Source: a virus
Taxonomy: Duplodnaviria; Caudoviricetes
Virus record (IMG/VR): IMGVR_UViG_3300037297_000386
Direction: 5' to 3' (one strand)
DNA length: 64,000 bases
The notes under the pieces are model-generated. The model saw only the letters and a list, made by a program, of their open reading frames with translations, was not told where the DNA came from and searched no databases. Positions 120-61,285 of the stretch are shown here, one piece after another. Position numbers and translations under genes: made by a program. How positions within the stretch are numbered: position 1 is the stretch's first letter; the number at the start of each line of letters is the position of its first letter.

Positions 120-128
120 TTTAAACCC

Positions 129-154
129 TAGGGGCTAGGAAAACCCAGCCCCTA
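129..154 (-). terminator. GC-rich stem-loop downstream of gene 175-840 (terminator or translational hairpin)
   Basis: Minus-strand RNA UAGGGGCUGGG-UUUU-CCUAGCCCCUA (11 bp with one G-U); only a weak U tract follows. Confidence 0.45.
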
Positions 155-174
155 TGATCATTGTCAGCTAAATA

Positions 175-933: not shown

Positions 934-950
934 AATATTAGTAGATTTTT
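934..950 (-). promoter_or_regulatory. Putative phage late-promoter motif (AAAAATCTACTAATATT)
   Basis: 16/17 identical to 16357-16373; core TCTAYYAATATT also at 47223 and 52266; upstream of gene 175-840. Confidence 0.5.
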
Positions 951-10516: not shown

Positions 10517-10551
10517 ATAGGGAAGAACGCGACATAAGCATTCTTCCCTAT
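10517..10551 (-). terminator. Stem-loop downstream of the protease/scaffold gene
   Basis: 11-bp perfect stem ATAGGGAAGAA/TTCTTCCCTAT; no U tract, so possibly a processing or stability hairpin. Confidence 0.4.
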
Positions 10552-15528: not shown

Positions 15529-15695
15529 TATTTATCATCCTCGTCGTTACTATGATCGCATACAAGTTTATTATGATCTGAGCCAACTGACACTATAACA
15601 AGTTTTTTACCACATTTGTCACAAAATATTTCAGACCCATCTTCGTCAATATACGACAAAACAGGCATATCATCTCCAGTTTTTATTATAGCCAT
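15528..15695 (-). CDS. Small Cys-containing protein (55 aa), not in ORF track
   Basis: MAIIKTGDDMPVLSYIDEDGSEIFCDKCGKKLVIVSVGSDHNKLVCDHSNDEDDK; TAATG-coupled to both neighbours. Confidence 0.6.
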   Translation of the reverse strand: MAIIKTGDDMPVLSYIDEDGSEIFCDKCGKKLVIVSVGSDHNKLVCDHSNDEDDK

Positions 15696-16288
15696 TACCC
15701 ATTCCTCATAAAATATTTTATTATTCTTTTTCTACGCTGTATGTTAAAGTGTAAATTACTTATTTTCATTCGCCCTAATATATCATGGTCAATATGATTA
15801 AATAACTGATTGTCTATCACATCAATGATAGATTTTTGTCTTTTCTCAATTTGAGCCGTAATTTGTTCAATTGTTTTACTAAAACCCTCACGATCTGTTT
15901 CTTTTAATAAATCCATTACGGCTTCAGCACCATCAGAAAGTTCTCCAATTTCTGCAATAATAATTTCGCGGAGTCTAACCATATCCGGATCACTTATTTT
16001 AGACAATTTTTCCAATGAATTTTTAACATTAGATAAGAATTCATTAAATATATTACGTATTTTGCGTCTATACCTTAATAAACGACCACGATATTTATGT
16101 TTTAGATCTTCCTTGGATGGCCGTTCTTCGGCCATTGCATCGCGTAAATCTGTAATTGATCTTACAGATTTGTCAAGTTTTTGTAATATATTTCTGAAAT
16201 CCTCTTTTACTTGTTTGGCAACAGCGCGTTCATTATCTGTAACCATCAAAGTCATTCTTGGTCCAGCTAATGCATTTGATCGTATCAT
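15695..16288 (-). CDS. Hypothetical helical protein
   Basis: 197-aa ORF with GAGG RBS, downstream of putative late promoter. Confidence 0.6.
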   Translation of the reverse strand: MIRSNALAGPRMTLMVTDNERAVAKQVKEDFRNILQKLDKSVRSITDLRDAMAEERPSKEDLKHKYRGRLLRYRRKIRNIFNEFLSNVKNSLEKLSKISDPDMVRLREIIIAEIGELSDGAEAVMDLLKETDREGFSKTIEQITAQIEKRQKSIIDVIDNQLFNHIDHDILGRMKISNLHFNIQRRKRIIKYFMRNG

Positions 16289-16356: not shown

Positions 16357-16373
16357 AATATTAATAGATTTTT
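16357..16373 (-). promoter_or_regulatory. Putative phage late-promoter motif (AAAAATCTATTAATATT)
   Basis: Intergenic; near-identical to 934-950. Confidence 0.5.
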
Positions 16374-47222: not shown

Positions 47223-47234
47223 AATATTGATAGA
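47223..47234 (-). promoter_or_regulatory. Putative late-promoter motif TCTATCAATATT at the start of the head module
   Basis: Variant of TCTAYYAATATT, between the infC terminator and first head-module gene. Confidence 0.5.
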
Positions 47235-47908: not shown

Positions 47909-48367
47909 TTAATATTCACAAGTCAAGCACTCTTCTCGCATTTTTTTTAATATTTCTATTATTTTCTTATTATTAGCGCACAACTTTCTTATCTTCTTTA
48001 AAGCCCCTCCGTATCGCTTTTTTTGATTATTATAGTCTATATTACCCTGAAGTATTTTATGTATAGTAGTCTGATGTTTTCCAAGTTCACTCGATATCTC
48101 GTTTTGAGTCTTACCTTCTAAATACGTCATTTTCATTACTTCTTTTTGTTTATCAGTAAGACAGTTTTCTACCACATACATTACCTCACTAAGTAATTCA
48201 TTTCTAAGTTTTTGAAATTCTTCAGAACATGATTGAGTAGATAAAAAAGCACTCATTCCTTCTTCATTAGAAAAATTATTAAGCAAATTAGGATCAATAC
48301 TTATTTCTACATAGTTATTAGAAATATCTGGGTCCCCCGAACTACTACAGGTAAAATTTTTTGGCAT
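47909..48367 (-). CDS. Sigma-70 region-4-like HTH protein
   Basis: LTDKQKEVMKMTYLEGKTQNEISSELGKHQTTIHKI. Confidence 0.75.
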   Translation of the reverse strand: MPKNFTCSSSGDPDISNNYVEISIDPNLLNNFSNEEGMSAFLSTQSCSEEFQKLRNELLSEVMYVVENCLTDKQKEVMKMTYLEGKTQNEISSELGKHQTTIHKILQGNIDYNNQKKRYGGALKKIRKLCANNKKIIEILKKMREECLTCEY

Positions 48368-50707: not shown

Positions 50708-51724
50708 TTATTCATGCATTACATTCTTTAATTTATTTAATAATTCTTTTTCTTCATTTGATGTCTGCTTTGGTATACATATTTTTACGACAACCAAGTG
50801 ATTTCCTTTATTGGACTTTTGTATTATACCTTTACCAGATATCTTTAATATGTCATTTGGTTGAGTACCTTGTGGTATAGTTAATTTGATTTTGCCATGA
50901 ACCGTATCAACTTGAACCTTAGTACCCAATATAGCATCAATATAGTTAATATATTCTTCAGATATAATATTCAGGCCATTCCTTTTATACCTATCATGAG
51001 GTTTTATAGCAACTGATAAATACAAATTGCCAGGTTCCGTACCATGTGAACTAGGCATACCCTTTCCTAATATACGCATAGTAGTTCCATTATCTATACC
51101 AGCGGGTATATTAATTTTAATATTTTCATTATTTGTGACTGTACCTTTACCGAAGCAAATCGTACATTTTTCTTTTATATTATTTCCAGTTCCATTACAT
51201 TTGTGGCATGTTTGTAAAATATGCATAAAGCCTTGGTTATACCCTATTTTACCAACGCCAGCACAATCATCACATTTATCTACACTATTGCCATCCTTTG
51301 ACCCATTTCCATTACATGCTGAACATTTATGTGGATATTGTATAGATATCTTTTTAGTACATCCTTTTACTGATTCCATAAAATCTATATATATTGTATG
51401 ACGTAAATCATCTCCACGTGTACTTTGTCGTTGATTGAGAAAGTCGTCAAATCCTATGCTAAATACAGAATTTCTTATATGTTCGAATGGATCTATTCCA
51501 TTAAATTTATCATAATCGCTACCATACCTATCGTATTGTTGTCGTTTCTGTGGATCGCTTAAGATTTCATAAGCTGCAGATAGATCCTTAAATTTATTTT
51601 CGGCCTCAGGATCACTTGAATTTCTATCTGGGTGGTATTGCAAAGCAAGTTTTCTATATACTTTTTTGATTTCCTCTTGAGTGGCATCATTTTTAACGCC
51701 GAGCACTTCATAAGGGTTCTTCAT
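50708..51724 (-). CDS. dnaJ: DnaJ chaperone (J domain with HPD, CxxCxGxG repeats, C-terminal domain)
   Basis: [21 protein letters not shown]; four CxxCxGxG motifs; GNLY. Confidence 0.95.
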
Positions 51725-52242
51725 TTTTTTCTACGCTTTCTCTTCTTGTGCTTAGGTTTTATTTCATTAATATTCAACTTTTCCATTTCGTAACCAGCCA
51801 AACCTAATACAATGGCATCAACTATATCATTGTGCTTCTTAAACTCATACTTTAGTTTAAATTTTTTATTGATAGTATCAAATGCTGCTTCTTTAGTATT
51901 TTTTATACCAACCAGTTTTCTAGCCTGAACAGCCATAATACTAATTGGCATATTGCTAGTTTTTTCATAAATTGACTTAATAGCTACACCACGGAATAAT
52001 GACAGTGTTTTAAATGTTATTATACTTGGACCACGGTAGATATCTTCGATTACTATAGTATCTGGGTTAATATAATTGATAAGATCTTTAATAGAATTTT
52101 CAAATTCTACCAATCTTTCTCCCATATTCGTGTTTGAGTTTATTACAATTAATCCGGATTGCTTCTTGTTAATCTTTCCATTTTTGATAACAGCCCAACC
52201 AATATTTCGTGAAGCTATATCTATTCCTAATATGATAGACAT
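51721..52242 (-). CDS. ruvC: RuvC-like Holliday junction resolvase
   Basis: [25 protein letters not shown] RNase H-fold motifs. Confidence 0.85.
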
Positions 52243-52285
52243 GGGTGCCTCCTATGTCTATTTATAATATTAATAGAAGGCACCC
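52243..52285 (-). promoter_or_regulatory. RBS-sequestering hairpin before ruvC overlapping a putative late promoter
   Basis: GGGUGCCUUCUAU / AUAGGAGGCACCC 13-bp stem (one G-U), 17-nt loop, ends at the ATG; TCTATTAATATT at 52266-52277. Confidence 0.75.
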
Positions 52286-52300
52286 AATTATCCGATAATA

Positions 52301-52954
52301 TTAATCGTCAAAATCAAAATCATCTTCATCATCAGTTGAAGACTCTACAGATGTGTTTTCAAAATCATTATCAACATCCTCAGTTGATAACCCACCTGAC
52401 AAACCAAGTTTTTCTCGTATTTCATCTGGCGTTGAAGCTTCTGTCATCTTCGAGATATCAACATTAGAAATAAACTCTTTAACCATTTCAATTTCATCGT
52501 TAGCGAGTTTTTCTTTTGGTTCAGGTGATACTATATAAAGTGGCTGTGAACCCTTCGGCTGTCGTTCAATATCGATATCAAAATTACGCGGATTCCCCCA
52601 CTTAGGCTTCTTTTTCAGACCTAAAATTTGCTTAAAAATTTGTGGCCCAATTTCAAGAATTGCACAATGCCCGCTTTTCCTATTTATTACGGGAACATAC
52701 CAACGAGCACTGGCACGTTCTCCAGCCTGGCACAAAGGACACCCATCAAGTGCGCAATGTACTTTACGATTTGCACCAGTAGCATCTTTTGACCAATGAA
52801 TATAAAATTGATATGGGGAACCGACTAAGCGAACCGGATTGGAACCTTCTTCCAAATTCATAAAGTTACTATTGCCTAAATCAGCATCTCCCCAGTCATC
52901 CAATTTTCCTACTACTCTTGTACTCATTTTGATCTCCTTATTGTCCTTGGGCAT
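52301..52954 (-). CDS. Single-stranded DNA-binding protein (phage type)
   Basis: Aromatic-rich OB-like core (YIHW, WYVPV, FDIDIER..Y), acidic tail DDEDDFDFDD; replication context. Confidence 0.7.
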   Translation of the reverse strand: MPKDNKEIKMSTRVVGKLDDWGDADLGNSNFMNLEEGSNPVRLVGSPYQFYIHWSKDATGANRKVHCALDGCPLCQAGERASARWYVPVINRKSGHCAILEIGPQIFKQILGLKKKPKWGNPRNFDIDIERQPKGSQPLYIVSPEPKEKLANDEIEMVKEFISNVDISKMTEASTPDEIREKLGLSGGLSTEDVDNDFENTSVESSTDDEDDFDFDD

Positions 52955-53008
52955 ATTTTAGCTATCGGTTACCATAACCTATCGCATTTGAACCAGCGGA
53001 CATAATCT

Positions 53009-53039
53009 ATTATACATATTTGACAACAAATGTCAAATA
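53009..53039 (-). promoter_or_regulatory. Consensus sigma-70 promoter overlapped by a 9-5-9 inverted repeat
   Basis: TTGACA (53036-53031), 16-nt spacer, TATAAT (53014-53009); TATTTGACA-N5-TGTCAAATA at 53017-53039. Confidence 0.7.
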
Positions 53040-60424: not shown

Positions 60425-61285
60425 TTACCTATCAAATAATTCTCTAACCTGCTTGTTTTTTGATAGCTCCTTTAATTTTATATTAGCTCCTGCGCTTGAT
60501 AGACCAACTTCTTCAGCAGCAGCCTTGATAGAATAATCATTAAAATATATCAATTCTATTATCCTAATTAAACGTGGGTCTTTATTTTTTAACCATTTGT
60601 TTATATCACATATAAAAATTATATTATCATCTATGTTTGTAATGTTATTATTCATTGTAAAATCTTTAAATTCCAAAGTATTATCACGGGTCCCCGGCAT
60701 TAATGAAGACTCATTTACTTCAGACATTACCATTGGTGTCTTTTTATTACCGTCACCGATAATAGTATTACATTTTGGACATTTTGTTTCATATCCATTA
60801 CCAAATTTATCAATAAACGAATATCCACATTTACATGATATATTGAATATTCCAATATTTAAATAAGTAGCATTTTTTGATATTCTATTTTTATCTCGTA
60901 TATCATTTATTAATCTTCGATTAACTCTCATTTCAATAAATGTTGATAATTTTGTATTTTTTTCTGGATTGTACTTTGGTATCCCTTCAAGTATATGAAC
61001 TATAATATCATGTTTAGTATCTTCAAATAGATTTCCATTGATATGATATCGACATGCCAATTTTAATATTAACGGTTCTAACTTGTTGATAACTTCTTTA
61101 TAACCCTCCCCACTTTCAGTATTGATATATATCTCTGAATCATATAACAATACTGTGCCAGCAAATCCAATGCGTCCTCCATTCTCTTCATTAAAAAAAT
61201 ATTCAAAATCTTGTTTAAGTTTAACATTTTCTTTGTTATTTGCATTTTTCATTTTGACTCCTACCAGGTTTGTTGGGCCGGACAA
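60425..61285 (-). CDS. Phage RNA polymerase sigma factor with inserted zinc ribbon
   Basis: Region 2 (EDTKHD..PKYNPEKNTKLSTFI..RRLINDIR), CKCG..CPKC insert, region 4 HTH (YSIKAAAEEVGLS). Confidence 0.75.
   Translation of the reverse strand: MSGPTNLVGVKMKNANNKENVKLKQDFEYFFNEENGGRIGFAGTVLLYDSEIYINTESGEGYKEVINKLEPLILKLACRYHINGNLFEDTKHDIIVHILEGIPKYNPEKNTKLSTFIEMRVNRRLINDIRDKNRISKNATYLNIGIFNISCKCGYSFIDKFGNGYETKCPKCNTIIGDGNKKTPMVMSEVNESSLMPGTRDNTLEFKDFTMNNNITNIDDNIIFICDINKWLKNKDPRLIRIIELIYFNDYSIKAAAEEVGLSSAGANIKLKELSKNKQVRELFDR

Follow-up and report, generated by a model that had tools for sequence, protein, structure and literature searches.

The start of ruvC in an uncultured huge wetland phage is enclosed in a strong RNA hairpin, which is predicted to bury the ribosome-binding site of the gene and overlaps a putative late-class promoter element. 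The best single explanation, for which the chances are put at about even, is a switch like that of T4 gene 49. The full history proposed here falls somewhat short of an even chance: an ssb terminator would have been turned into a temporal translational switch, leaving ruvC and dnaJ silent early and made from a late RNA, in convergence with T4 gene 49. The window, i.e., the whole 64,000-nt stretch of DNA that was analysed, corresponds to positions 23,692-87,691 of a 162,416-bp viral contig, read on the reverse strand, and coordinates below are those of the window unless stated otherwise. The hairpin consists of the following parts.

52273..52285, minus strand: 5′ arm, GGGUGCCUUCUAU, in the ssb 3′ UTR, 15 nt past the ssb stop codon
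52256..52272, minus strand: loop, UAAUAUUAUAAAUAGAC, 17 nt, A/U-rich
52243..52255, minus strand: 3′ arm, AUAGGAGGCACCC, containing the GGAGG of ruvC and abutting the AUG at 52242

Thirteen contiguous pairs, one of them G·U, make up the stem, which reaches 14 bp when U52286·A52242 is counted; the 3′ arm includes the ruvC Shine-Dalgarno sequence GGAGG (52252-52248, minus strand) at a distance of 5 nt from the AUG. The minimum free energy of the 76-nt context is −27.5 kcal/mol versus −13.6 ± 2.9 for shuffled sequences (z −4.76, 0 of 200 shuffles as good), which confirms the 13-bp stem ending at the ruvC ATG with GGAGG inside that had been noticed in a preliminary description of this DNA. Among the 137 genes of the contig, ruvC has the most structured start (−28.2 versus a mean of −8.0, standard deviation 4.4), and it is also one of the 6 that carry a full GGAGG. 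The U·G pair of the stem is conserved and favours folding of the sense-strand RNA (−22.0 versus −18.0 kcal/mol). Nowhere else in the contig are the two arms found together as a pair.

Regarding the setting, the contig has 33% G+C, an estimated completeness of ~40% (CheckV), and a single-strand gene layout, with 137 of the 144 crude gene calls on one strand and an intergenic share of 4.1%. Read along the minus strand, the order begins with DNA polymerase III alpha and three small ORFs, continues with an ssb-like gene, ruvC, dnaJ, recA, a zinc-ribbon ORF, primase, and a 152-aa sigma-like ORF, and reaches a canonical terminator, beyond which lies a packaging and head module with ligase, terminase, portal, and protease. 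The genes most relevant to the hairpin are listed below.

52301..52954, minus strand: ssb-like gene with an acidic DFDFDD tail and PHROG matches
51721..52242, minus strand: ruvC, 173 aa, RuvC-family resolvase
50708..51724, minus strand: dnaJ, without a Shine-Dalgarno sequence, its start overlapping the ruvC stop
60425..61285, minus strand: phage sigma70-family factor, 286 aa (Sigma70_r2, E 7e-12; PHROG sigma matches)
47909..48367, minus strand: another sigma-like ORF, 152 aa, similar to sigma factors in their C-terminal part only

The ruvC product matches the RuvC profile (Pfam PF02075, E 4.4e-12, 46.5 bits versus a cut-off of 22.2), and its acidic tetrad D8, E66, D139, and D142 is invariant across 11 homologues; we take these residues to correspond to D7, E66, D138, and D141 of the E. 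coli protein. As for the ssb product, its matches to the PHROG single-strand DNA binding protein have E values of 3.5e-9 to 1.9e-8, and the true start is likely 52927 (208 aa), in agreement with a 208-aa gene call in a related contig. The ruvC TGA and the dnaJ ATG share the ATGA at 51721-51724 (minus strand), and the same overlap is found in relatives. Judging from this arrangement, dnaJ is probably translationally coupled to ruvC, and the kept overlap suggests that coupling of the DnaJ chaperone to the resolvase is obligatory. With no Shine-Dalgarno sequence of its own and an ATG that overlaps the ruvC TGA, dnaJ is probably under the same hairpin lock as ruvC. The phage collection searched by DNA and by protein contains no cultured relative, and published transcript maps therefore do not apply to this phage.

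According to the folding models, the Shine-Dalgarno sequence is paired with a probability of 0.999 on leaders that include both arms (47-760 nt), and freeing positions −13 to +5 on these leaders costs ~23 kcal/mol. Opening takes 9.8 kcal/mol on RNAs that start in the loop (52259 or 52257) and 4.6-5.9 kcal/mol on those that start at 52250-52246. Comparing long and short leaders, which had been suggested earlier as a check, thus gives the expected difference (~23 kcal/mol with both arms versus ~5-10 kcal/mol from the loop or later), and on any RNA with both arms the hairpin must, as modelled, mask the ruvC Shine-Dalgarno sequence. A ribosome terminating on ssb stops 15 nt short of the stem and should not open it; for the same reason, opening by ribosomes translating ssb was judged unlikely. 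An alternative, anti-sequestering pairing was sought by folding, and none was found.

A second small hairpin, AUAGACAU/AUGUCUAU (52254-52261 with 52235-52242, minus strand; −10.2 kcal/mol), could form on RNAs without the 5′ arm, where it would bury the AUG and hold the Shine-Dalgarno sequence in its loop. It has an analogue in the relative whose RuvC is 63% identical. This hairpin was set aside and is not relied on here, since the sister lineage described below breaks one of its pairs.

A long RNA that includes both arms can, judging by promoter sequence, be supplied from upstream of ssb, with read-through of the hairpin assumed.

53009..53036, minus strand: ssb promoter, TTGACA-16-TATAAT, perfect sigma70-type

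This promoter is the sole 12/12 match in the contig and the sole intergenic match of at least 11/12, and relatives as well as the sister lineage keep it at 11-12/12. It lies 770 nt upstream of ruvC, and between the two the consensus scan finds no canonical terminator. At the ruvC hairpin itself the scan predicts no terminator either: the tail past the stem, AUGUCUAUCAUA, has 4 U in the first 8 nt and 5 in 12, broken by G and C, and the tail AUGUCUAU has four U only. Between the promoter and the likely ssb start at 52927 there is an ssb 5′ UTR of ~85 nt (52928-53036, minus strand), the beginning of which, ATGTCCGCTGG, is also kept by the sister lineage and by relatives whose RuvC is 46% identical. 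By analogy with T4 gene 32, this UTR may serve as a leader for autoregulation.

The sister lineage was found via the 90% protein cluster of RuvC, in which a second sequence is present on 22 contigs from several samples. Its RuvC is 92.5% identical in amino acids, ssb, ruvC, and dnaJ are 86-87% identical in nucleotides, and identity at the third codon positions of ruvC is 71%. The spacer between ssb and ruvC has the same architecture in this lineage (−24.6 kcal/mol, z −4.90). Within the stem, the changes of G52285/G52284 to A/A are matched by changes of C52243/C52244 to U/U, which leaves two fully compensatory pairs (GG/CC to AA/UU), eleven invariant ones, and no broken pair; covariation in related phages, also proposed in the preliminary description, thereby gains qualitative support. 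Neutral drift would not be expected to leave four stem substitutions all of which are compensatory, and on this comparison the hairpin is under selection. The covariation evidence is qualitative, because with two distinct sequences the shuffle control (131 of 500) has no power. In the loop, the sister lineage has a 3-nt insertion directly past the 12-mer discussed below and one substitution; the 12-mer itself is conserved at 12/12, and the significance of two sequences sharing its 7 loop bases is weak. Since complementarity rather than sequence is conserved and the U·G pair is kept, the element seems to act as sense-strand RNA and not as a protein operator. Among three DNA runs whose contigs were compared with the window, one may come from the source sample, and one contains a relative that is ~88% identical, with contigs that end at 52260 and 52304 and so leave out the spacer.

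More distant relatives suggest where the hairpin came from. Around RuvC homologues at 39-63% identity the gene order ssb-ruvC-dnaJ-(protease)-recA is kept, and about 15 of the 19 distinct relatives have a canonical intrinsic terminator between the acidic-tail ssb and ruvC. The stems of these terminators are G+C-rich (−17 to −28 kcal/mol), are followed by 4-7 U in the next 8 nt, and end 5-24 nt before the ATG of a ruvC that has no Shine-Dalgarno sequence. Several of them read GGGGTGC/GCACCCC, which is close to the stem base GGGTGCC/GGCACCC here. The ruvC hairpin thus has the position, the G+C-rich stem base, and the stability of the relatives' ssb terminators. It differs from them in its loop, which is 17-20 nt long and holds a promoter motif, whereas theirs are short, as well as in the GGAGG within the stem, the stem that abuts the ATG, and the absence of a U-tract.

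Because an ordinary terminator occupies the same position in these ~15 of 19 relatives, the lock is a derived state of the ssb terminator. As far as the sequences compared here go, it is lineage-specific, being found so far in the two sister lineages only. Both the ssb-terminator position and the probable coupling of dnaJ had been overlooked in the preliminary description. Given that the hairpin sits at the site of the relatives' ssb terminator, insulation from ssb transcription is also involved. The relative with the 63%-identity RuvC has an extra 210-aa gene (2331-2963 in that relative) between its ssb terminator, GGGGTGCtactGCACCCCTTTT (2253-2331), and ruvC; its ruvC start lies in an unrelated 10-bp hairpin (−11.0 kcal/mol) with the Shine-Dalgarno sequence in the loop.

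The second component of the proposed switch is a 12-mer that spans the 5′ arm and the loop. Its copies in the window are the following.

52266..52277, minus strand: nested copy, TCTATTAATATT, its first 5 nt belonging to the 5′ arm and the remaining 7 to the loop
47223..47234, minus strand: copy at the start of the packaging and head module, ~100 nt past the canonical terminator, orthologous in six related contigs
16357..16368, minus strand: copy upstream of the head-region gene 15695-16288
934..945, minus strand: copy TCTACTAATATT, upstream of the gene 175-840

The repeated motif at 52266-52277 had been described before as straddling arm and loop, and it does so with the 5 and 7 nt given above. 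The 162-kb contig contains 7 gene-strand copies of TCTAYYAATATT, all 7 of them intergenic and 23-95 nt before start codons, and the opposite strand has one copy, which is within a gene. With an intergenic share of 4.1%, such a placement is far from random. No copy is found in the first 35 kb of the contig, its early or replication side; the ruvC copy comes first and is the sole one in the replication module. The next copy (47223-47234) opens the terminase, portal, and head module, and in six related contigs it is conserved together with a downstream block, T(T/A)ATA(T/A)TGT(T/A)AGG. In a 105-kb relative the single 12-mer is at 89,986, with ~90 kb before it that have none. The chance of one of seven copies falling within the 30-nt hairpin span of a 162-kb contig is ~1e-3.

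Taken at the sequence level, the distribution of the 12-mer supports a real cis-element that behaves as a late-module promoter element, and the 286-aa sigma70-family protein is a candidate reader of such late-class promoters. The late promoter that was said to overlap the hairpin is therefore partly upheld: the 7 of 7 intergenic gene-strand copies and the conserved copy at the module start speak for it, whereas the −10-like hexamer present in most other copies is missing at ruvC. The 12-mer is absent from the literature searched. A scan of viral contigs for the two-block pattern (12-mer plus hexamer) returned mostly unrelated AT-rich matches, together with six orthologous promoters. As regards a gp55-type system, the search was limited to Sigma70_r2 and the RNA polymerase beta subunit, and the latter was not found in the contig.

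Several other features are of note. The 152-aa sigma-like ORF is directly upstream of the terminator and of the conserved late-class promoter copy. A perfect 15-bp inverted repeat made of A/T only (926-964) surrounds the copy at 934-945. Outside the window, the 12-mer precedes two HNH/EndoVII-like homing-endonuclease genes (contig 97279-98225 and 126153-127119), one of them immediately followed by tail sheath, as well as a TnpB gene located where the contig ends (161739-162416). Mobile genes here carry the late-class element of this phage, as many T4 homing endonucleases do. Strong hairpins that start with AUAGGG and have no U-tract are found just upstream of genes at 10517-10551 and ~120-174 (both minus strand), with stems of 14 and 11 bp; these may be 5′-terminal stabilising stem-loops of transcripts starting at a GTAGG-type element. 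Two near-identical structured intergenic copies of ~95 nt lie 100 kb apart (contig 1-135 and ~101,100-101,220, outside the window) and may represent a small RNA or a repeated regulatory element. The other 12-mer copies have no significant hairpin (z −1.4 to +1.1), which makes the ruvC lock a one-off in this genome.

The rival explanation that survives best, though it is a rather unlikely one, does without any temporal switch. According to it, the hairpin is a constitutive damper or insulator, a remnant of the ssb terminator, and the 12-mer within it is not a working promoter. The hairpin would pause or partly terminate the polymerase, shield the 3′ end of the abundant ssb mRNA against exonucleases, and hold translation of ruvC and dnaJ low for good. 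The terminators at exactly this position in ~15 of 19 relatives, whose ruvC has no Shine-Dalgarno sequence, make low read-through expression the ancestral state, and the resemblance of the stem base to the relatives' stems points the same way, as does the absence of a −10-like hexamer from the ruvC copy. Resolvases are needed in small amounts, which also counts for this reading. It has, however, to contend with the lack of a U-tract (4 U in 8 nt, interrupted) and with a scan that finds no terminator. A lock of 23 kcal/mol on a Shine-Dalgarno sequence that is among the strongest in the genome would nearly silence a conserved gene, and a late-class 12-mer nested at this very place, kept at 12/12 while the rest of the loop changed, would be left unexplained.

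If the nested copy is a working promoter, two geometries can be considered for its start site. A −10-like hexamer (A2, T6) stands 6-8 nt past the 12-mer in 4 of the 7 contig copies and in six of six orthologues, with GTAGG-type purines directly behind it; the ruvC copy and its sister counterpart do not have such a hexamer. Transcription from the ruvC copy could therefore begin within either the loop or the Shine-Dalgarno sequence, or the copy could be weak. If the hexamer is the −10 element (geometry 1), transcription would start ~20 nt past the 12-mer, i.e., at 52250-52246 for ruvC, which is within or beyond the Shine-Dalgarno sequence. Alternatively, the −10 element may be the invariant AATATT within the 12-mer, with TCTAYY as an extended element (geometry 2), in which case the start would be ~7 nt downstream. 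At ruvC that would be near A52259, giving an RNA with the whole 3′ arm and the Shine-Dalgarno sequence and without the 5′ arm; on this view, the hexamer and purines further downstream would belong to the leader. Geometry 2 fits the sequences better on three observations, namely, that the 5-6 nt just past the 12-mer vary, that ruvC tolerates a 3-nt indel there, and that the Shine-Dalgarno sequences of the compact copies are 12-19 nt past the 12-mer. With either geometry the predicted RNA is without the 5′ arm, and the same is true of any start 6-20 nt downstream of the 12-mer.

Two other promoter candidates in the loop were rejected. The best host-type match, TAGACA-17-TATCAT (10/12), would place the start inside the ruvC ORF, and the T4 late consensus TATAAATA, which occurs in the loop at 52266-52259, is not enriched in the window (20 versus 15.8 expected).

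That the nested promoter works with the two-block geometry is improbable, and less probable than the damper. Here the late RNA would start at ~52250-52246 and yield a nearly leaderless, poorly translated ruvC, the hairpin still silencing the early RNA. The hexamer and GTAGG purines behind most copies favour this reading, the compact copies before TnpB and an HNH gene would also place the RNA start at the Shine-Dalgarno sequence, and leaders from 52250 or 52246 are the least structured of all (4.6-5.9 kcal/mol). In the ruvC copy, however, the expected place holds no A2/T6 hexamer, and the distance from the 12-mer to the Shine-Dalgarno sequence varies by 3 nt between the lineages, which a fixed geometry would tolerate poorly. 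A strong GGAGG that is never used in the open state would also be hard to explain.

The remaining readings are unlikely, starting with an element that acts as DNA, either an inverted repeat for a dimeric regulator or a cruciform controlling the nested promoter, which has very little probability left. An inverted repeat does flank a promoter-like motif, but complementarity and not sequence is kept (GG/CC to AA/TT), the half-sites are 17-20 bp apart and not equally spaced in the two lineages, the conserved U·G pair is functional in sense-strand RNA only, and the contig has no second pair of these arms. Least probable of all is an RNA thermometer, a ligand switch, or a functionless chance palindrome: the one weak match in Rfam 15, to the ToxT thermometer (23.4 bits versus a gathering score of 81, E 0.37), is far below threshold and on the non-coding strand, nothing in Rfam 15 is above threshold, environmental temperatures would not suffice to melt a perfect 13-bp stem with 7 G-C pairs (−22 kcal/mol), folding shows no alternative anti-sequestering pairing, and chance is excluded by the shuffles and the compensatory changes.

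The preferred reading thus remains a T4-like switch. In its proposed course, the ancestral ssb terminator would have lost its U-tract, grown its loop, and gained a strong Shine-Dalgarno sequence in the 3′ arm. RNAs from the ssb promoter would read through ssb and fold the hairpin, and neither ruvC nor the coupled dnaJ would be initiated, while recA and the other downstream genes on the long RNA would still be translatable from ribosome sites of their own. A polymerase starting at the nested late-class 12-mer would make an RNA without the 5′ arm, on which the lock could not form, so ruvC and dnaJ would be translated when this promoter class is active. Some mechanism of relief is needed, since ruvC is intact, conserved, and among the six genes with a full GGAGG site. 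We infer that the nested copy fires, as well as its start site and its timing. A late-class promoter at ruvC would also drive dnaJ, recA, and primase, so at the level of transcription the switch would not be specific to the resolvase; the earlier claim that RuvC is made only at packaging time was an over-reach.

In T4, late genes present in early and middle polycistronic RNAs have their ribosome site sequestered by a hairpin, which forms on the long transcripts only, and the late promoter is placed so that its RNA omits the inhibitory arm (PMC2988022). This device is described for I-TevI, I-TevII, I-TevIII, segB, soc, e, and Aeh1 mobE (PMC2988022), and the case of gene 49, which encodes endonuclease VII, is credited there to Barth et al. 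1988. The T4 anatomy on which the preliminary description relied was reproduced by folding. In gene 49, AAUAAUAAAUACCCUUAUCU/AGGUAAGGGUUUAUUAU forms a hairpin with a local energy of −14.4 kcal/mol, in which the 5′ arm with AATAAATA pairs with AGGUAAGGGUUUAUUAU abutting the AUG; the hairpin of I-TevI is analogous (−10.8 kcal/mol), and both agree with the rule given in PMC2988022.

The likeness to gene 49 includes a junction-resolving nuclease gene on a long RNA (here a predicted one) from an upstream promoter, a stem that ends at the AUG with the Shine-Dalgarno sequence in its 3′ arm, and a late-promoter-type motif in the 5′ arm. The logic of gene 49 that had been ascribed to ruvC is thus retained as far as hairpin, masking, upstream promoter, and shared anatomy are concerned, and is weakened by the ruvC copy having no −10-like hexamer. 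There are also clear differences. Endonuclease VII and RuvC have unrelated folds and come from unrelated phage lineages, and the promoter is the gp55-read TATAAATA in T4 versus a 12-mer here that is probably read via a phage sigma70-family protein. The stem is stronger here (−22 to −27 kcal/mol, −22 locally), the hairpin derives from an intrinsic terminator, and no nested internal-start product is evident for ruvC. The mechanism proposed here is a prediction from sequence. Unlike the I-TevI group, the endonuclease and TnpB genes that carry the 12-mer in this phage have no significant hairpin, and ruvC alone has one.

As for what the finding means, TCTAYYAATATT, with its usual −10-like hexamer and GTAGG, is a candidate late-promoter element for a clade of uncultured huge phages, which aids annotation and gives a target for testing phage sigma proteins. 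The value of the lock itself is comparative rather than conceptual, because its class of mechanism is textbook. A convergent device, to which slightly less than an even probability is given, would use a nuclease, a promoter class, and a sigma system unrelated to those of T4. If this is true, delaying a junction-resolving nuclease through a hairpin that hides its ribosome site and is bypassed by a late promoter would be a recurrent phage solution and not a peculiarity of T4-like phages. The locus would then also offer a rare evolutionary series, from a plain terminator in most relatives to a lock with a nested promoter in the two sister lineages.
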